From a virus, in IMG/VR virus record IMGVR_UViG_3300009183_006007, positions 1-64,000 of that record: a stretch of 64,000 nucleotides of DNA. One strand, 5' to 3'. Positions within the stretch are counted from its first letter, which is position 1. Every line of letters begins with the position of its first letter. Shown here piece after piece: positions 5,015 to 53,900 of the stretch. Made by a program: the position numbers and the translations under genes. A model generated the notes under the pieces. The model saw nothing but the letters and a program-made list of their open reading frames with translations, ran no database searches and had not been told where the DNA came from.

Positions 5015-6397
5015 ATGAAAAAAATTTTAACAATATTATTCACATTTTTAACATTCACTCAATTACTATCACAAAATAGTTTTATAGTGAATGGTGGTTT
5101 AGATGTTGTAGCAACTGGTTCTGTTGAAATAGTTTTAAGTGATTATAACTATACTAATCAAACTGGTTCGTTATTAAATATTGGTAGTTACTTAAATTTC
5201 ACAGGAAGTACAAACCAAACAATAACTGGAACTACTCAATTTGAAAATATAAAAGTAAATAAATCAAGTGGTGAGTTACTATTAGTTGATGATATTTCAG
5301 TTTCAGGTGACGTTACTATGACAAATGGTAGTATAAATTTAAATGGTAAAATATTAGATTTAGGAACAACCGGCTCGCTTGTAAATGAAACAAATATTAA
5401 AAAAGTTTACTCAACATCATCAACATCCTATGTTAGAGTTATAAGAACAATTGGTAGTGGTGTTACAATAAACCCAGGTAATATTGGTTTATCATTAGTA
5501 ACAACAAATGCACTTGGTAGTACCGAAGTTAGAAGAAGAAATGAAATTGTTGATGTCGGATCATCAAATATGAGTATCGATAGAGTTTATTCAGTTTTCC
5601 CATCTACAAATAATGGAAGTCTTAATGCGACACTAGACGTTAACTATTTTAATTCAGAATTAAATGGATTAGATGAAAGTTCTTTAGCAACTTTCAGAAG
5701 ACCATCTATAAGTTCAGCTTGGGTAAATAAAGGTGGGACAAATATACAAACTTCAACTGGAAGTGGAACAGGTATAGTTCAAAATTTGAATTGGATGGAA
5801 TTTTCAGAAGTTACACTGGCTTTAAATGCAACTCCATTACCGATAGAACTATTAAGCTTCTCGGCTGATTGTTTCGATGGTGGTGTTAAATTAACTTGGG
5901 TAACAGCATCTGAGTTAAACTCTGACCATTTTGAAATAGAAAGATCTAGAGATGGTTTCAATTGGGATTTAGTTTTAAATAAACCTGCTGCTGGAAATAG
6001 TAATCAAGTTCTTACATATGAAGTAGATGATAAAGGAAGTAAATTGTTTGATGATATCTTATATTATAGACTTAAACAATTTGACTTTGATGGTTATTAT
6101 AAAATCTATGATGCAATTTCAATAAATTGTTTGAAAGATGTCAATAATTACATAAAAATATATCCTAACCCTAGTGATAACTTATTTAATATTATATTAA
6201 ATAATGATTTACTAATTGGAAATTCTGTAATAAAAATAACAGATGCATTGGGTAGAACAATTTATAACAATAATGTTAATGTAACTCCTGGTGTGAATTT
6301 ATTTGTTTTAGATTTAGATATTAAACCTGGTATTTATTACATATCAATTGATAATAATGGACACTCATCTGGTGTAGTTACACAAATAATAAAGTAA
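5015..6397 (+). CDS. T9SS type A sorting-domain protein
   Basis: Signal peptide; PLPIELLSF...W.TASE.N..HFEIERS.DG; YYRLKQFDFDG; IYPNP...GIY CTD. Confidence 0.85.
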   Translation: MKKILTILFTFLTFTQLLSQNSFIVNGGLDVVATGSVEIVLSDYNYTNQTGSLLNIGSYLNFTGSTNQTITGTTQFENIKVNKSSGELLLVDDISVSGDVTMTNGSINLNGKILDLGTTGSLVNETNIKKVYSTSSTSYVRVIRTIGSGVTINPGNIGLSLVTTNALGSTEVRRRNEIVDVGSSNMSIDRVYSVFPSTNNGSLNATLDVNYFNSELNGLDESSLATFRRPSISSAWVNKGGTNIQTSTGSGTGIVQNLNWMEFSEVTLALNATPLPIELLSFSADCFDGGVKLTWVTASELNSDHFEIERSRDGFNWDLVLNKPAAGNSNQVLTYEVDDKGSKLFDDILYYRLKQFDFDGYYKIYDAISINCLKDVNNYIKIYPNPSDNLFNIILNNDLLIGNSVIKITDALGRTIYNNNVNVTPGVNLFVLDLDIKPGIYYISIDNNGHSSGVVTQIIK

Positions 6398-6409
6398 TAA
6401 AAAATACTT

Positions 6410-6440
6410 AAAACCCACTCAAAACTGAGTGGGTTTTTTT
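6410..6440 (+). terminator. Intrinsic terminator
   Basis: AAACCCACTC-AAAACT-GAGTGGGTTT followed by a T tract. Confidence 0.85.
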
Positions 6441-14590: not shown

Positions 14591-14738
14591 CTAAAAAATA
14601 ATATATAGTATATGATAATTTATAGAATTTTTAATAAAATAATATCACACCAAGAAAAGTAACTTGGTGTATTAAAAAGAACAACCTAGATACACCTGGT
14701 AAAAATTATTGGCAAACCAATAAATAGAATTAATTTTT

Positions 14739-27864: not shown

Positions 27865-28671
27865 ATGGCATTAAATGATATAAATGGATATGGTGACACT
27901 TATGTTCCCTACCAAGGGGGATATACGATAGAAGAAATGGTGGATCTTGTTCAAAATGAATTAACAATTTCTTGTGCATTACCAAAGTCTTTACCTGATG
28001 CAAATATCAGACAGATAATTGAAACAAGAGCTTTACCTTGGTTCTATAGATCTTATCAATTCGCCGTTCAAAAAATGTATTTCTTAATAAAGAAAGATGC
28101 TTTCTTCTCAGAAGAATTTACAAAATATAATTATGTTAATGTTCCGTGTGAGATTCAATCAGTTGTTTATCTTTATGAGGTTAGAGGAGATAGTTTATTT
28201 CAATTAGGTATTAACACTCCTAACTTATCAGTAAACTTAGGTGTTACCAATCAACCTTATTTATCATCTTATGTTACAACTATTGGTGAATTAGGTGTTT
28301 ATAAAACGGTATTAGACTCGATGTCTGATATGTTAAATCAGTTAAATAAATATACATTAAAGTATCAGTTTAATCAATTGAACCATAGAATTCATATCTT
28401 AACTAATGTTCAATATGATGTTATTATGGAAGCTTATGCTAATATTCCTGCTGAAAATCTATTCAAAGATGATTTATTCTTTAAGTATGTAACCGGATAT
28501 GCTAAACAACAATTAGGTAATATGATGGGAAGGTACGATTTTCAATTACCGGGTGGTATTAAAATACAGGCTGCTGACTTAGTTTCACAAGGTAAAGAAG
28601 AAGTAAAAGAAGTTGAAGAGGAAATTAAGGGTCAATCGAATTCAACTTGGTTCATTATGGTGAAAAAATAA
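27865..28671 (+). CDS. Neck protein (T4 gp13-like)
   Basis: YQFNQLNHRI; KYVTGYAKQQLG...QLPGGIKI...GKEE resembles the gp13 C-terminus. Confidence 0.7.
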   Translation: MALNDINGYGDTYVPYQGGYTIEEMVDLVQNELTISCALPKSLPDANIRQIIETRALPWFYRSYQFAVQKMYFLIKKDAFFSEEFTKYNYVNVPCEIQSVVYLYEVRGDSLFQLGINTPNLSVNLGVTNQPYLSSYVTTIGELGVYKTVLDSMSDMLNQLNKYTLKYQFNQLNHRIHILTNVQYDVIMEAYANIPAENLFKDDLFFKYVTGYAKQQLGNMMGRYDFQLPGGIKIQAADLVSQGKEEVKEVEEEIKGQSNSTWFIMVKK

Positions 28672-28678
28672 AAAGTAA

Positions 28679-29074
28679 ATGAAACACTTAAAAAAATTTA
28701 ACGAATCATTAAAAGAACCAATTGATGTTGAATCTGATATTATCGAGTTCAAAGAAAAATTGGGTAAAGCTTATCATAACTTCTTTTTAAAAATGTATGT
28801 CTATTCACCTGAAGAAGAATATGCTAAAGCAATGAATAATATAGAACACCTTATAGTATCTAATCCAACTATGACTGATGATTGGGATGTTTGGGAAGTT
28901 TATGGAACAGATGATTATGGTAGAAATTCTGGAACAATTATGAATGTTAGAGCTGTTTCTAAATTACATGCTAAAATTAAAGTAGCTACTATTAAAAATA
29001 ATTTAGAAATATTAGCTACTGGTTACTACTCAGCATCTAAGACTTCTAAATCCGATTTCCATAGGTATATATAG
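28679..29074 (+). CDS. Hypothetical protein with N-terminal tag
   Basis: Starts MKHLKKFNES. Confidence 0.7.
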   Translation: MKHLKKFNESLKEPIDVESDIIEFKEKLGKAYHNFFLKMYVYSPEEEYAKAMNNIEHLIVSNPTMTDDWDVWEVYGTDDYGRNSGTIMNVRAVSKLHAKIKVATIKNNLEILATGYYSASKTSKSDFHRYI

Positions 29075-29089
29075 TGTATCTAATCAAAA

Positions 29090-29120
29090 TAAAAAAACCC
29101 AGTCGATGACTGGGTTTTTT
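29090..29120. terminator. Bidirectional terminator
   Basis: AAAAAACCCAGTC-GAT-GACTGGGTTTTTT. Confidence 0.85.
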
Positions 29121-29167
29121 GCTCTGTTCACACGGAGTGCCAATTGATTTTTAAGAGTCAATATCTC

Positions 29168-30184
29168 TTACTTGTTAAATCGATTAAATGAGTTTTGACT
29201 AATAACTTCCCATCTGACTTCACCTATGAAATCTTCAAGACTTCTACTATCTGTATATGACATAGCAGATTTTAAGTAATCAGTAAAGTTCTCACACCAA
29301 CCTTCTAAAGTATAATCAACCTTATTGTATTTAGTAATACCTTCTCCAGTTTTTAATTCAGATTTGTTCCAAGACTTTTGAACTTCTTTAGTAGACATTC
29401 CTCTATAATATTTATAGACATCAATCCCAGTATTAAAATTCAAAGTTGCTATTTCTGGTTCAATTGTGTGATAAACTCCATTAGCATCTTGTAAAAAGTT
29501 ATCACCACAACTTTCTAAACATTTGTTAAATACGCCGCCTAACATCACATAGTCAGCTCCCAAAGCAAGTGCCTTTATAATATCAGAGAAGTTTCTGAAT
29601 CCACCATCAGCAACTATTTTAGTTGGTTTATCATAAATATGTTTCCAATCAGCACATTCGCTAATAAGTGAAGCCATTGGATAATGGATGGAAACATTGG
29701 CAGAGGTAGTACAAGCACTACCACCACCAATTCCAACTCTTATATAATCGACGCCTATTTCACAATACTTTCGGTAAGTATCTGGGTTAGCGATATTCCC
29801 AATCATCAATTCTATATTATATCCGTAAGTTTCTTTAATTTGTTTAGATGTTTCCCATAGTTTCATCATATGACCATTAGCAACATCAATTAGAACTCTT
29901 TTAGGAAGAGGTTTACCCGATTTAATGATTTCAATGATTTCATCTAATCCATATGAGTAGAAATAGTTATCATTTTTCAAATCATCATATTTGACGTGTC
30001 TTGGAAGACAGACATTAATAAGATTATCATCAAATGATTTAACATTTGTTTCATCGATTACTTTATCCATTGGTGCTGTAAATAATGGTAACCTACCATT
30101 ACTTAATGGATTAATTTCTTTTCTTGAGGCAATCGTACTTAATGTTTCAGGCACAATAGAAACATCATTCCAGTCATATTTCAT
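29168..30184 (-). CDS. GMP reductase / IMPDH family enzyme
   Basis: APMD, IDVANGH, RVGIGGGSACTT, IVADGG, ALGADYVMLG, YRGMS. Confidence 0.88.
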   Translation of the reverse strand: MKYDWNDVSIVPETLSTIASRKEINPLSNGRLPLFTAPMDKVIDETNVKSFDDNLINVCLPRHVKYDDLKNDNYFYSYGLDEIIEIIKSGKPLPKRVLIDVANGHMMKLWETSKQIKETYGYNIELMIGNIANPDTYRKYCEIGVDYIRVGIGGGSACTTSANVSIHYPMASLISECADWKHIYDKPTKIVADGGFRNFSDIIKALALGADYVMLGGVFNKCLESCGDNFLQDANGVYHTIEPEIATLNFNTGIDVYKYYRGMSTKEVQKSWNKSELKTGEGITKYNKVDYTLEGWCENFTDYLKSAMSYTDSRSLEDFIGEVRWEVISQNSFNRFNK

Positions 30185-30199
30185 AAATTTGATTTATTT

Positions 30200-30514
30200 T
30201 TAATAAAAGATATATCTACCTTCTTCTTTGACGCAATAGATAGAGATTGGATAAAGTCTTAACTCTCCTTGAGTTTCATCGACCATAAATCTCATTGCTC
30301 CGTCAACAACCTCTTCATTTATAATTTTAGTTGTTATTCCATTAAGACCTTTGAATATTGTGTAATTTATTTCATCAGATTCTACTATCTTAATGAAGTG
30401 GTCTTCTTTTCGAAGAATTTTACCCATATGGCCTTCTTCAAAATAGGCTTTTTCAATAATAGATTTTAGAACATCTGAGTTACTAAACTCAACTTTAATT
30501 TCGTGTTTAATCAT
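30200..30514 (-). CDS. Hypothetical protein
   Basis: ORF; AAACTT-N14-TATAA at 30553-30577 upstream. Confidence 0.6.
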   Translation of the reverse strand: MIKHEIKVEFSNSDVLKSIIEKAYFEEGHMGKILRKEDHFIKIVESDEINYTIFKGLNGITTKIINEEVVDGAMRFMVDETQGELRLYPISIYCVKEEGRYIFY

Positions 30515-30577
30515 TTTTTAAATTATTTTGTTAACATTGATTTACTTTTGTTTTATAGATTAGGGAGTAGAAAGTTT

Positions 30578-30585
30578 AATATATA
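30578..30585 (+). promoter_or_regulatory. AATATATA motif with no downstream CDS
   Basis: Points into the structured element at 30600-30680. Confidence 0.55.
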
Positions 30586-30599
30586 CTTTATATTTTTAA

Positions 30600-30680
30600 T
30601 CCGACTTAGGGCCGGAATAGTTATAACCCCATCGGGTTACTATTGAGAAACACCGAATTCGCTCCTCGGTGTTCTCGCTT
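30600..30680. ncRNA. Candidate small structured RNA matching 23S rRNA H69-H70
   Basis: GC-rich island with three hairpins; 16/19 match to 23S 1911-1929 plus a TTCGCT match to 1932-1937. Confidence 0.6.
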
Positions 30681-30872
30681 TTAAATAAGTTTGTTTAATT
30701 GTGATTCTCTATGACATTCTTTACAAACTCTTACATTCATGAACCCATTTATCCCAAGTACGGTTCTTGGGACTTGTATAATACTGGATTCTTTTGTTGG
30801 TGTTTCATTCTTACATAAATGACAATCAACCACCATTATCCATTCTTCCATTGGATTTAACCGACGGTTCAT
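30681..30872 (-). CDS. Small Zn-finger protein with C-terminal tag
   Basis: CHLC...CKEC; ends HRESQLNKLI. Confidence 0.65.
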   Translation of the reverse strand: MNRRLNPMEEWIMVVDCHLCKNETPTKESSIIQVPRTVLGINGFMNVRVCKECHRESQLNKLI

Positions 30873-31273
30873 ACAAGTTCATTTAATAAGATGTTTCTTA
30901 ATTCAGATTTATCTAATTCAGTTTCTTCAAATACAGAAATATCAAATACAACTTTTACATCATCGTTTCTAAACTTAGAAGATATAGTAGCTCTATTTAG
31001 ATATGTTTCCATTTCCCAGAATTCACTGGTCTCAACCACTAACCTATCTCTATCTCTAGACATTTCACCTTTTTGTAGCAATAGTTTGAACCTAAAAATA
31101 TCGTTTAGTGTATTGTTAGTATCATCAAGTTTTATATCTAAGAGAATTATATCATATAGTGATCGAGGAATTGTAACCGTTAACTTAACTGGTTCCATAC
31201 TATACCACATATCTCCTTTGATTTGAGTTTTCCACTTACACGGAAAACCTTTACCATTGTAAAAAAACTTCAT
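30869..31273 (-). CDS. Hypothetical protein with C-terminal tag
   Basis: Ends LRNILLNELV. Confidence 0.65.
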   Translation of the reverse strand: MKFFYNGKGFPCKWKTQIKGDMWYSMEPVKLTVTIPRSLYDIILLDIKLDDTNNTLNDIFRFKLLLQKGEMSRDRDRLVVETSEFWEMETYLNRATISSKFRNDDVKVVFDISVFEETELDKSELRNILLNELV

Positions 31274-31545
31274 TAGTAAGTATCTTTATTTGAGAATGTG
31301 ATAATAACATTCTTTGGACTTCCAATTTTCATCAAACCTTCTTTGATATTTGGAATATCATTAGGAACATCATCAATTTTTCCCCTGAAAACTACTTTAT
31401 CAATTAAGTGATAATTAGTTAAAAACCAGGAGTTATAAGACATCATGTCATCCTGATGTAACATTAGGATTCCGTTATCTGATTGTAGTTGTGTTTTGTT
31501 TTTAAAAATGCCCAACTCACGCATTTTTTTAATTTGAATTTCCAT
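31273..31545 (-). CDS. Hypothetical protein
   Basis: TATATTTG at 31562-31569 upstream. Confidence 0.6.
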   Translation of the reverse strand: MEIQIKKMRELGIFKNKTQLQSDNGILMLHQDDMMSYNSWFLTNYHLIDKVVFRGKIDDVPNDIPNIKEGLMKIGSPKNVIITFSNKDTY

Positions 31546-31645
31546 ATTTTTAATATATAAACAAATATATGAAGTTTAATTAAATAATCCAAAAACTAAA
31601 CAAACTTAATTTATTTACTATAAAAATAACAAACTAATTTAAAAT

Positions 31646-32602
31646 ATGGAACATATATTACAAGAAAACAAAGACCGTTTTGTAATGTTTCCCTTAAAAT
31701 ATCACGATATTTGGGAAATGTATAAAACTCAACAACATTCATTTTGGACTGCAGAAGAAATTGACTTAGCTCAAGATTTAACTGATTGGAATGAAAAATT
31801 AAATGAGAATGAACAACATTTTATTAAAATGGTTCTGGCTTTCTTTGCGGCATCTGATGGTATCGTAAATGAAAATTTGGCTGAGAACTTTTTGAAAGAG
31901 GTTCAGTATCCAGAGGCTAAATCATTTTATGGATTCCAAATTGCTATGGAGAATATTCATTCTGAAACATATTCTTTATTAATTGATACTTATATCAAAG
32001 ATTCGGAAGAAAAAGATAGATTGTTTCACGCAATTGATAACTTTCCTTCTATTAAAGAAAAAGCTGATTGGGCTTTGAAATGGATTGAATCTGATTCACT
32101 TGATGAGAGATTAATTGCTTTTGCAGCAGTTGAAGGCATCTTCTTCTCAGGTTCATTCTGTTCTATCTTTTGGTTAAAGAAAAGAGGTTTAATGCCTGGT
32201 CTAGCATTTTCTAATGAGTTAATCTCTAGAGATGAGGCTTTACATTGTCAGTTTGCTTGTTTATTACATAATAGATATATTAAAGATAAAGTATCAGAGG
32301 AAAGAATCAAAGAAATCATCTGTTCAGCAGTTGATATTGAAAGATTATTTATTACAGAATCTTTACCGGTTTCTTTAATTGGAATGAATGGTAAATTAAT
32401 GGAACAATACATTGAGTTTACTGCAGACTTTTGGTTACAAGCATTAGGATGTTCAAAAGTTTACAATGTAGAAAATCCTTTCGACTTTATGGATATGATT
32501 TCATTACAAGGTAAAACTAACTTCTTTGAAAAAAGAGTTGCTGAGTATCAAAAAGTATCAGACAAAGCAATTGACTTTGACAAATTAGATGATGATTTTT
32601 AA
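31646..32602 (+). CDS. nrdB: Ribonucleotide reductase class Ia beta subunit
   Basis: [46 protein letters not shown]. Confidence 0.96.
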
Positions 32603-32622
32603 TTAAATTATCTTAAAAAATT

Positions 32623-32651
32623 AAACCCACTTCAAAAGAGTGGGTTTTTTT
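32623..32651 (+). terminator. Intrinsic terminator
   Basis: AAACCCACT...AGTGGGTTT followed by a T tract. Confidence 0.8.
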
Positions 32652-32655
32652 ATTT

Positions 32656-32663
32656 AATATATA
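32656..32663 (+). promoter_or_regulatory. Putative late promoter AATATATA
   Basis: Heads the 32668-34840 tagged-gene run. Confidence 0.65.
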
Positions 32664-32667
32664 TGTT

Positions 32668-33186
32668 ATGAAAATTATTAGGACACGATTGAAACCTTTT
32701 GGAGGGTCAGCTGAATTCATTTCTATGAAAGGAAAGATTAAATCCATCATTGAAAAAAACAAAGGAGATGTATTTCATTTTGTAATGGAAGATAGTGGTG
32801 TTAAAACCGTAAAAGAATTTGGACCGGAAAATATTAATCCAGAATTAGTAGGTCAATCTATTATTATCTGTGATGGACCTTGGATGGCACAATTTAATGA
32901 TGATGGTACAATTGATGTTGTAATTGGGACTAATGAATCATTACCTCGTCAACAATCTGTTGATCAACTTAAAAGAGTTATGAAGATGTCAGCAAAAACT
33001 GATATTGGTAATAGAATATCTGATATGAATAAACAAGGAGCTAATGTTCAATATATTCAGAATCCAATTGATTCAGGAATTGAATCATATGAAGACTTTG
33101 AAAAAAAGAATAAATCATTTGTACCTTCTTGGAATCTTAAACATTTATTAAGTCCATTTTCAGGAGAATCAAAAAAGAAGAAATAG
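32668..33186 (+). CDS. Hypothetical protein
   Basis: Tag-like segments near the C-terminus (IESYEDFE, LKHLL). Confidence 0.65.
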   Translation: MKIIRTRLKPFGGSAEFISMKGKIKSIIEKNKGDVFHFVMEDSGVKTVKEFGPENINPELVGQSIIICDGPWMAQFNDDGTIDVVIGTNESLPRQQSVDQLKRVMKMSAKTDIGNRISDMNKQGANVQYIQNPIDSGIESYEDFEKKNKSFVPSWNLKHLLSPFSGESKKKK

Positions 33187-52083: not shown

Positions 52084-53005
52084 AATATTTTAATGTTTTT
52101 TTAATTCCATCTTCTATACAGAATTTGTATTCTATTTTACTTTCAGATACTCTATAGTACACCCCTTTTGGTTTATCATTCAAGACTTTTATCTCTGGGT
52201 TGTATCCATATATATTTGAAGCAATTTTAGCTAACTCTGAAAAGGATGTTGCTATTGAAGTTCCTATGTTTAATGATCTACCATCATTTATAGTGTACAT
52301 TGTATTATTAACATACTCAACAATATCATCAATATAAACAAAGTCTCTAATAGAATCACTCCATATTACCAAAGGATCTTCTTTATCTACTATTCTTTTT
52401 ATTATAGCTGGGAAAGGATATGCTGTATTTTGGTCTTCACCATATCCTGAAAATGGCCTATAACTAATAACATTTAGACCAGTATTTTGATGAGCTATTT
52501 TACAAAGATACTCACCTGTCATTTTAGCCCAACCATATGTTAAATCAGGCAATCCTATATTGTTATCATAATCCAATAATGATTCATTTAATTTAATCTT
52601 CTCATCATTATCCATTTGATGTTTAACTGGATAAACAGCGCTTGATGAAAAGAAAACCAATCTATCTACTTTTTTATCAGAACACCATTTTATAACATGT
52701 GAGTCTATAATTAAATCAGTTGCTACATCGAGAGGACTTTCTTCAATTTTTGTTCTACCACCAACAATAGCTGCTAAGTGAATAACAATATCGTATTTAG
52801 TCTCATCTACATTCAAGAATTCAATTATATCTTTTTCAATAAATTTAAAATCACATTTAAGTCTATCTTGCCATTGGTCTGGATATAAAGAACTTTCAGA
52901 TGACATATTATCAACTCCTATTATTATATACTTATCAGAGAAAAATTTACAAAAGTGTCGACCAACAAATCCACAACACCCAGTTATTAACATTTTTTTA
53001 TTCAT
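52055..53005 (-). CDS. NAD-dependent epimerase/dehydratase
   Basis: TGCCGFVG, HLAA, SSSAVY, YGWAK. Confidence 0.9.
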   Translation of the reverse strand: MNKKMLITGCCGFVGRHFCKFFSDKYIIIGVDNMSSESSLYPDQWQDRLKCDFKFIEKDIIEFLNVDETKYDIVIHLAAIVGGRTKIEESPLDVATDLIIDSHVIKWCSDKKVDRLVFFSSSAVYPVKHQMDNDEKIKLNESLLDYDNNIGLPDLTYGWAKMTGEYLCKIAHQNTGLNVISYRPFSGYGEDQNTAYPFPAIIKRIVDKEDPLVIWSDSIRDFVYIDDIVEYVNNTMYTINDGRSLNIGTSIATSFSELAKIASNIYGYNPEIKVLNDKPKGVYYRVSESKIEYKFCIEDGIKKTLKYYDNTFDNQL

Positions 53006-53900
53006 ATATTTTTTTAAATTTTTTAATAAAATTCTGAGCTAGTTGAAAATAAGTACCTTGTTTTTTTAAGTAATCATATCCATCTTGTTGAACCTTTGTA
53101 AATAAATCTAGATTATTTTTGTATAAATTTATATAGTGTTGAACATCTTCAAATGTAGATACATATTTTACTATTCCATTTGTACATTCTTCCGCTGATT
53201 TATTATCACTTAGAACAATACATCCGTAAGCCATTCCCTCAAATACTCTTTCTACAACACAAGAATTTTCAATATTAGGATCACTATGAAAACCTAAACA
53301 AACTCTACTATTTAAGTAAGCTTTTACTTTTTCTTCTTCTGATAAAAATACATCAGATGAGTTGCTATAATATTTAAAGCAGTTATTTAGAGAAGATACC
53401 CAACTTGTTTTATATGGAGCACCAATAAAACAAGAATCATATGTTATATTCTTTTCTAATTTACCAATATCATCTGGATGAATAGAACTAGAAAAAACAA
53501 AGGGTATCCATTCTTTACAATTCATTGAAAATTTATAAGCATCAATATGTTGTTGTGATGATCTTGGTTCATTTCTATAATATTCACCGGTTATTAAATA
53601 TTTCTTAAATGGCATATTCTCTATCATTTTACTTTCAAAATTAAAATGCCAACATATAAAATATGCTTTGTCTAATTTTTTACCTATATCATAAACCACA
53701 TTAATATCACCCATTGTAATAAAATGATTTGATAACAGAAATATATTTTCATCACTGTTATATTGCTCAATATTATTCAAAGTAGTAAGTTCAATAAATT
53801 CATAACCATTTTGTTTAAAACCATTACAAAATTTAGTTGATGTATAATGATGACTACCAGGACAAGGAATTTCAGGAGTATTTAAATTTATTATTTTCAT
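52998..53900 (-). CDS. CgeB/Glyco_trans_1_2-like glycosyltransferase
   Basis: ERVFEGMAYGCIVLSD. Confidence 0.7.
   Translation of the reverse strand: MKIINLNTPEIPCPGSHHYTSTKFCNGFKQNGYEFIELTTLNNIEQYNSDENIFLLSNHFITMGDINVVYDIGKKLDKAYFICWHFNFESKMIENMPFKKYLITGEYYRNEPRSSQQHIDAYKFSMNCKEWIPFVFSSSIHPDDIGKLEKNITYDSCFIGAPYKTSWVSSLNNCFKYYSNSSDVFLSEEEKVKAYLNSRVCLGFHSDPNIENSCVVERVFEGMAYGCIVLSDNKSAEECTNGIVKYVSTFEDVQHYINLYKNNLDLFTKVQQDGYDYLKKQGTYFQLAQNFIKKFKKIYE

Follow-up and report, generated by a model that had tools for sequence, protein, structure and literature searches.

Trans-encoded antisense small RNAs (sRNAs) contact their targets through hairpin loops, as in the kissing interaction of OxyS with fhlA and the loop nucleation of CopA and RNA I. 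Phages, for their part, take over translation with proteins and tRNAs. We know of no phage or bacterial sRNA that targets ribosomal RNA (rRNA) by base pairing, and a literature search for a phage or bacterial sRNA that base-pairs with rRNA found none. Here we describe a structured RNA element, predicted to be a stand-alone small RNA gene of about 85-90 nt, whose conserved loops are complementary to the helix 69/helix 70 (H69/H70) region of 23S rRNA. The element lies in a 64-kb stretch of DNA (the window, meaning the whole stretch that was analysed) of the 75,196-base IMG/VR virus record IMGVR_UViG_3300009183_006007. The record has a G+C content of about 30% and, because its completeness is only 17% by CheckV, it is a fragment of a very large phage.

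The element occupies an island between two minus-strand open reading frames (ORFs), 30200-30514 (104 aa) and 30681-30872 (63 aa). An earlier note, written from the sequence alone, had flagged this island as an intergenic structured RNA. It took the island either for a late RNA, antisense or guide, with the host 50S subunit as its target, or for a minus-strand mimic of H69, and it named as checks a shuffle test of the 23S match, a covariation analysis and the conservation of the matching bases among homologues. Its description of the sequence proved accurate: the motif that it placed at 30578, AATATATA, is found at 30578-30585, and its three hairpins fold at the positions listed below. The island does have a context: it is a discrete predicted plus-strand gene with a promoter-like box ahead of it and an end that resembles a terminator. 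Its parts are as follows.

30574..30585, plus strand: promoter-like box GTTTAATATATA, about 12-15 nt 5' of hairpin 1; the same box is kept upstream of the orthologous copies.
30597..30685, plus strand: the whole predicted small-RNA gene, matched end to end by the family covariance model.
30600..30616, plus strand: hairpin 1, with stem TCCG/CGGA (30600-30603 with 30613-30616).
30616..30644, plus strand: hairpin 2, with outer stem AAUAG/CUAUU and inner stem UAACCC/GGGUUA.
30645..30676, plus strand: hairpin 3, with an 11-bp stem, one bulged A and the 9-nt loop AUUCGCUCC (30657-30665).
30677..30683, plus strand: terminator-like tail, GC then UUUU, which overlaps the stop codon of the minus-strand 63-aa ORF.

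With the 23S numbering confirmed on E. coli rrlH, positions 30605-30623 share 16 of 19 bases with the reverse complement of 23S 1911-1929, as had been claimed. The differences also fall where the earlier note put them: a G faces U1923, forming a wobble, and a GA faces A1919/A1918. Within this match, the loop of hairpin 1 carries CUUAGGGCC (30605-30613), which is antisense to 23S 1921-1929 with one G.U pair, while the 5' side of hairpin 2 (AUAGUUA) extends the complementarity into 23S 1911-1917. The adjacent 23S segment is matched by the third loop, again as first noticed, with UUCGCU antisense to 23S 1932-1937. In the window copy, loop 1 is predicted to form a duplex of -12.9 kcal/mol and loop 3 one of -7.4 kcal/mol. 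The target stretch, which is identical in E. coli, corresponds to the region of the I-CeuI site, and we take it to be universally conserved.

Considered by itself, the window's match to 23S is marginal against chance: 3% of dinucleotide shuffles (47/1500; p ~0.03) reach 16/19 against some rRNA on either strand. The case against chance therefore rests on the relatives, at the level of which the match lies far beyond chance.

A distant BLAST search yielded a single syntenic copy, in LR745206.1, the 634,780-bp genome of an uncultured phage. Beyond it, nothing similar was found among the GenBank phages; megablast of 29100-32000 against them gave no match, nor did distant searches of them with copies from two other subfamilies, B and C. 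Pattern scans anchored on different parts of the element found it in 54 viral contigs and 68 metagenome contigs, and in none of 185,579 prokaryote genomes (one per species). Once duplicates had been removed, the more than 100 viral and metagenome contigs gave 74 distinct variants. A covariance model built from 33 of these finds exactly one copy per locus across 75 loci; two borderline matches (L146 and L148, E 0.03-0.08) were left out of the membership. The window element matches this model, R1, over model positions 1-87 with 86.9 bits (E 4e-15), and by repeat search it is single in the window and in the 75-kb record.

Searches of RNA databases placed the element in no described family. Rfam 15 gives 0 matches at gathering score in the 64-kb window and no family at threshold in 14 loci that span relatives from all subfamilies; with E up to 10, the region 30400-30800 yields three unrelated weak matches, all outside the element. 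ARAGORN finds no tRNA or tmRNA gene in the window. A tRNA-like reading, in which CUUAGGA would be the anticodon loop of tRNA-Leu and hairpin 2 the D-arm, was rejected on this negative result, on the loop size, which is 8-9 nt in most members, and on the wrong order of the arms. A literature search likewise returned no description of this RNA family. One published catalogue (PMC10690425) draws on the same kind of source data and lists 8,495 unnamed candidate structured RNAs from IMG/VR, 1,241 of them predicted with a terminator; the accessible portion of that article reports no overlap with rRNA predictions and contains no reference to rRNA complementarity. The family may be among these unnamed candidates. 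Taken together, the family is real, widespread and, in the collections searched, found only in phages, and it constitutes a new, well-supported class of phage structured RNA that is absent from Rfam.

Three features recur throughout the family: a covarying stem round an invariant CUUAGGAC(C) loop, a variable middle hairpin with AGUUA, and an 11-bp covarying hairpin with the invariant loop AUUCGCU(A/C)C, which is usually followed by a U-run. The covariation analysis bears out this structure. The whole-structure score is 0.385 versus 0.133 for shuffles (0/500 as high), and it collapses when the partners are slid by one column. In hairpin 3, which RNAalifold predicts independently, 98.4% of the cells are paired (60 distinct rows) and 8 of the 11 pairs show compensatory changes; its top three pairs (CGA/UCG) are invariant in sequence, in a stem that otherwise covaries. 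CUUAGG is closely enclosed by a stem of 4-6 bp in 45/74 variants, versus ~12% with shuffled flanks, and this stem comes in at least 10 types (e.g. TCCG/CGGA, ACGG/CCGT, AGTGG/CCGCT, AGGT/ACCT and AACCG/CGGTT). Other members have, in place of hairpin 1, a junction with an extra covarying 5' hairpin, and CUUAGG is unpaired in all of them. Hairpin 2 is variable in length across the family but is supported, all pairs of its helix 4 (6/6) having changed on both sides.

A mutual-information scan for a partner of the A/C position in loop 3 returned lineage-linked columns only. As a separate observation, the 3' arm and tail of hairpin 3 (30672-30682, plus strand) read UUCUCGCUUUU in the window's subfamily and UUUUCGCUUUU in relatives, the latter being a repeat of the loop's UUCGCU; G-C at this position is linked with the C variant of loop 3.

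The bases complementary to 23S are the very bases that are conserved and unpaired across the 74 variants, so that the conservation named as a check is indeed found. Each of the two near-invariant blocks, CUUAGGACC and UUCGCUAC, has one complementary site in the E. coli rRNAs, and the two sites, 23S 1921-1929 and 1930-1937, are directly adjacent. We calculate a probability of order 1e-6 that, within 4.6 kb of rRNA, the sites of a 9-mer and of an 8-mer would fall directly next to each other by chance. Identities of the window copy and five relatives, from gapped alignment to the antisense (anti) of 23S 1906-1929 and 1930-1948, are given below.

L017: anti(1906-1929) 19/19; anti(1930-1948) 9/9.
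L083: anti(1906-1929) 22/23; anti(1930-1948) 9/9.
L028: anti(1906-1929) 21/23; anti(1930-1948) 11/11.
L037: anti(1906-1929) 22/24; anti(1930-1948) 17/17.
L055: anti(1906-1929) 22/24; anti(1930-1948) 15/15.
Window: anti(1906-1929) 16/19; anti(1930-1948) 9/9.

The window copy is thus among the least 23S-like members. The score for the first segment (anti 1906-1929) was reached by 0/300 shuffles in each of the 11 members tested. Furthermore, the stretch after CUUAGGRCC, which lies outside all of the search patterns, resembles anti 1906-1920 in 57/74 variants, above the 95th percentile of the null. The substitutions in loop 1 are compatible with this pairing. In scans that left the loop free, and in retrieval by synteny, those of confident members were limited to A7G (the window plus several further lineages), A4G (L011, L137 and L139) and C1U (L139); all three retain pairing to GGUCCUAAG via G.U, and the only other changes are single-base indels. 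Judged by its sequence, the family would in effect be a circularly permuted antisense of 23S 1906-1948 in which the parts facing 1921-1929 and 1930-1937 are exposed. The conservation of these loops across phages of differing G+C and gene context fits a universal partner.

These results dispose of the proposition that a GC-rich terminator region of the usual kind merely happens to resemble 23S. The window's own shuffles and the frequency with which 8-10-nt rRNA matches arise in sense-strand controls would lend it some colour. Nevertheless, the stronger matches in relatives, the coincidence of matching with conserved bases, the adjacency of the target sites and the first-segment score, which no shuffle of any of the 11 members attained, effectively refute it, and we regard its probability as negligible. 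The shuffle test proposed in the earlier note is therefore marginal for the window and decisive for the family.

Other candidate contacts were considered and set aside. Further antisense 10-12-mers (for example 23S 1857-1866 in the window and 16S 231-242 in L038) are attributable to chance, with sense-strand matches being equally frequent. RNAduplex runs of 12 full-length members against the rRNAs of E. coli predicted extended duplexes with many loops all along the targets and so carried no information. A 13-mer search of the 75-kb record for further rRNA-like stretches returned four places, which is the chance level, and the record holds no second site complementary to the loops. On the minus strand at 53861-53884 there is a 24-nt string made of two overlapping 13-mers that equal 23S 427-439 and 1935-1947; it lies inside a coding region, at the start of ORF 52998-53900.

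A second rRNA match occurs in subfamily C, which comes from T4-like surroundings, with a family B DNA polymerase and a PP-loop ATPase in the vicinity (L004:5266-5368, L044:4344-4448, L032:2812-2915 and nine more loci, all of which share the conserved tail CUAAAGUGAGC). Its members carry an extra hairpin with a covarying stem (AU/GC/CG and GC/CG) and the invariant loop GGCUGCU. Together with its closing pairs, this loop forms CGGCUGCUGG(C), the exact antisense of 16S 517-527 (the 530 loop), in 12/12 distinct members. The match falls on a highly conserved 16S segment, and the sense-strand controls contain nothing comparable; it is suggestive support for an anti-rRNA role, as far as sequence can indicate one. 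The resemblance of the tail AAGUGAGC to 23S 1099-1105 was rejected, as it spans only 7-8 nt and is at chance level. The 23S H69/H70 and 16S 530-loop segments both lie at the decoding and subunit-interface region of the ribosome.

We next consider the strand. Hairpin 3 contains 34 G.U or U.G cells versus 1 A.C or C.A cell. In several subfamilies the plus strand has T5-T8 runs directly after hairpin 3, or a separate terminator further downstream. In relatives, a TATA-like box precedes the element by 2-25 nt. Given the G.U excess, the terminators and the upstream boxes, the plus strand is the RNA strand, and the predicted RNA is presumably transcribed from it. The box GTTTAATATATA is a putative promoter. 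Copies of it with one mismatch occur at 14735, 31548, 32652 and 51091 on the plus strand and at 6315 and 42530 on the minus strand; those at 31548 and 32652 stand directly upstream of plus-strand genes (the ribonucleotide reductase (RNR) small subunit and a 172-aa ORF), a placement that fits what would be expected of a phage promoter motif.

The same evidence bears on the second suggestion of the earlier note, namely that a minus-strand transcript would be a sense mimic of H69/H70 and a decoy for an rRNA-directed nuclease or modifier. In the window's subfamily, no minus-strand terminator separates the flanking genes, which are encoded on that strand, so that a read-through mRNA would contain the sense-like sequence. 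Moreover, this copy alone folds better on the minus strand (-33.4 kcal/mol, z -4.1) than on the plus strand (-27.2 kcal/mol, z -2.4); the statement that hairpin 1 pairs better on the minus strand holds for this copy, but not for the family. However, the 34 G.U cells of hairpin 3 become mismatches on the minus strand, versus the single A.C, and it is the plus strand that carries the U-run terminators and the TATA boxes. No minus-strand transcript is expected in subfamilies B and C, whose neighbours run along the plus strand. Finally, covariation supports helices other than that of H69, and the sense pieces stand in the wrong order. A minus-strand decoy is thus very improbable.

Five metatranscriptome runs contain small parts of 28000-33000. 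In the four that were compared in detail, contigs fall on the GMP-reductase-like and RNR genes and none extends over 30338-31005, although contigs cannot show absence. Some of the lake and freshwater contigs are nearly identical in sequence.

The orientation of the element is opposite to that of its neighbours in the window's subfamily and the same as theirs in others. In subfamilies B and C it starts 6-14 nt from the upstream stop codon, on the same strand as its neighbours, and in subfamily C it runs into the next gene without a terminator. Given that its orientation is independent of the neighbours, and that the neighbours are unrelated between subfamilies, the element behaves like a self-contained trans-acting gene, which suggests a self-contained module.

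The co-stranded copies nevertheless raise the question of whether the element acts in cis, as a terminator or insulator, as a processing site, or as a ribosome tether in a polycistronic mRNA, in which case the rRNA-complementary loops would hold ribosomes near the next gene. Besides the close spacing in subfamilies B and C, this would account for hairpin 3, which doubles as an intrinsic terminator in several subfamilies. We consider a cis-acting role, though conceivable in subfamilies B and C, improbable overall, since the copies of the window's subfamily are antisense to both neighbours and have their own promoter-like box, and since the genes next to the element are entirely different from one subfamily to another. 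Nor does a terminator need as many as three hairpins with invariant loops; a terminator role would leave hairpins 1 and 2 and the invariant loops unexplained, and in this phage an ordinary terminator is a plain GC hairpin that has a T7 run and lacks a conserved loop (families D2 and D7). The window's tail itself is not called by a simple terminator scan, having a 9-nt loop and only 4 U, where relatives have T5-T8. Elsewhere in the window, ordinary bidirectional terminators occur at 6411, 13388, 18605, 27553, 29092-29120, 32622 and 34841; in contrast to hairpin 3, they are short GC hairpins between A-runs and T-runs, without conserved loops.

We therefore turn to what the RNA might do in trans. 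The most likely mechanism, which we put forward tentatively, is that of a trans-acting antisense sRNA directed against host 23S rRNA. A conserved, accessible seed complementary to a conserved target, which is expected of such an RNA, is present. The block CUUAGGAC(C) of hairpin 1 and the loop (A)UUCGCU(A/C)C of hairpin 3 would nucleate pairing with 23S G1921-A1937, a contiguous target at the base of helix 69, where helix 70 begins. Pairing could then spread into the flanking antisense-like segments, such as AUAGUUA, which is antisense to the H69 loop. Held on nascent or free 23S, the RNA would block the formation or the function of H69/H70; late 50S assembly or subunit joining might be disturbed as a result, or the rRNA might be exposed to nucleases for nucleotide salvage. 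Binding to 23S and its consequence for the ribosome are what we infer from the complementarity. The antisense or guide RNA of the earlier note thus gains from the plus-strand assignment, from the conserved unpaired complementary bases and from a loop 1 kept within wobble pairing, while the action on the 50S subunit that it proposed is conjectural and its "late" timing derives solely from the TATA-like box.

Several observations weigh against pairing with 23S. Position 8 of loop 3, which faces U1931, toggles repeatedly between A and C (43 vs 17 variants); the window has a C, which cannot pair with U1931 and leaves 6 bp. Where 23S reads GCGAAAUU, the complement of the RNA reads GCGAAUU, with one A fewer. 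One continuous duplex is impossible, because the blocks are permuted relative to the target. In mature ribosomes, 1920-1924 are paired within H69 and the region is partly buried at the subunit interface, so that the RNA might reach it only in nascent or free 23S. The 5' block of subfamily C itself spans 1930-1933 and hence overlaps the target of loop 3, and the 16S match of this subfamily covers only 10-11 nt, is post hoc and has an expectation of ~0.1 per RNA. Nor is there an obvious benefit to a phage in disturbing ribosomes.

With these points weighed, the broader proposition is plausible but somewhat doubtful: that freshwater T4-like and huge phages encode a dedicated anti-rRNA sRNA, aimed at 23S H69/H70 and in one subfamily also at the 16S 530 loop, with which they disable, reprogram or dismantle host ribosomes. 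In a more exotic variant, the permuted antisense could serve as a template, since the sequence is a circular permutation of antisense 23S 1906-1948 and repeated copying of it would yield an intact sense H69-H71 decoy.

The remaining alternative involves a protein partner. The genes around the element in the window are the following.

29168-30184, minus strand: GMP-reductase/IMPDH-family gene, flanking the RNA locus.
30200..30514, minus strand: 104-aa ORF, a syntenic neighbour of the RNA in the huge-phage subfamily, on the opposite strand.
30681..30872, minus strand: 63-aa ORF with CxxC...CxxCH, between the RNA terminator and the 134-aa ORF.
30869..31273, minus strand: 134-aa ORF, the syntenic neighbour on the other side of the RNA.
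31646-32602, plus strand: ribonucleotide reductase small subunit, flanking the RNA locus.

The window copy sits among nucleotide-metabolism genes, and relatives within the huge-phage subfamily keep the flanking synteny of the GMP-reductase/IMPDH and RNR genes. Only in that subfamily are the 104-aa and 134-aa ORFs syntenic with the RNA; between subfamilies the neighbouring genes are entirely different, and no protein neighbour is common to all. Neither of these two ORFs has a match in Pfam, PHROG or Atlas. The AF2 model of the 104-aa protein (pLDDT 79, pTM 0.71) has weak fold matches, below significance (Foldseek E of at least 0.17, VIA Z of at most 4.8), and these fall repeatedly on PUA-like RNA-binding domains (RsmE, RlmI/RlmO-type, TruB, ASCH and YTH), which belong to rRNA and tRNA modifying enzymes. 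As a lead only, the modelled protein could be an RNA-binding partner of the RNA. The 63-aa ORF has a weak HNH_5 match (E 0.043) and is confined to the close lineage of the window; absent from LR745206 and most relatives, it is a lineage-specific insertion. As a further observation on the genes of the window, repeated DNA occurs at the starts of several ORFs (28666, 33925, 35100, 36487, 38215 and 38462; families D1, D3, D9 and D16), which therefore share an N-terminal leader (MK.LK...F.E.).

A protein-directed role would make the RNA a scaffold, sponge or regulator, bound by an RNA-binding protein of the phage or the host, whose invariant loops are protein-recognition sites, and its 23S likeness the relic of captured, rearranged rDNA. 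Recognition of an exocyclic amino group would explain the A/C toggle in loop 3 more readily than pairing with U1931 does, and the top of hairpin 3 (CGA/UCG) is invariant while the other stem pairs covary. In some members the stems, too, resemble antisense 23S (GACAAG in L037, AUAG in hairpin 2), as would be expected of shared ancestry, and in the huge-phage subfamily the small protein with the weak PUA-like fold always adjoins the RNA. On the other hand, a relic would drift in AT-rich phage genomes, whereas here the unpaired bases complementary to 23S are invariant and the stems covary freely. All of the loop 1 substitutions are wobble-compatible with 23S, the subfamilies have no protein neighbour in common, and the PUA-like match, with Z <5, is below significance. 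Overall, we regard a protein-acting RNA, the main rival, as unlikely, albeit with evidence of its own, and retain antisense action on 23S as the preferred mechanism.

Whatever the mechanism, this is a widespread, phage-specific class of structured RNA that is missing from current RNA family databases. If the complementarity is functional, it would represent a new viral mode of action on the ribosome. The site is so conserved that the same RNA could, if this is true, work in almost any bacterium, which would make it a natural, broad-range design for an anti-ribosome antisense.

Among known systems, the box C/D, H/ACA and U3-type small nucleolar RNAs (snoRNAs) resemble the window RNA in being small and structured and in directing conserved unpaired segments, sometimes several of them, at conserved rRNA sites. 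Unlike in snoRNAs, its guide segments are in permuted order and have no known partner enzyme; to our knowledge, bacteria and phages do not use snoRNA-type rRNA guides. The plus strand of 30597-30685 contains neither UGAUGA nor CUGA, as box C/D would require, and no 3' ACA. Its complementary blocks lie in terminal loops rather than in an internal pocket, and the target 1921-1937 is covered contiguously, with no unpaired U between guide duplexes as in H/ACA. The rRNA-mimicking leaders (ribosomal-protein leaders and the 23S-methyl motif, RF01065) are likewise non-coding and have conserved sequence related to a piece of rRNA, but they act in cis, as sense mimics to which an rRNA-binding protein attaches, whereas the window RNA is antisense and stand-alone and has no Rfam match.

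Two further systems resemble the window RNA in the way contact would be made. In the EBS2/EBS1-IBS2/IBS1 pairing of group II introns, two loops engage two adjacent target segments in the same 5'-to-3' order; because the introns use this arrangement, the permuted topology is physically plausible. The window RNA differs in being only ~90 nt long and in lacking both intron domains and a catalytic core; Rfam gives it no intron match, and its vicinity contains no reverse transcriptase. With respect to antisense RNAs of the OxyS and CopA type, the presumed target here is an rRNA instead of an mRNA or a plasmid primer, and the gene resides in lytic or huge phages. What they have in common is a short RNA, here predicted to stand alone behind a promoter-like box and to end in a terminator-like hairpin, whose conserved loops, carried on covarying stems, are complementary to two nearby target segments.

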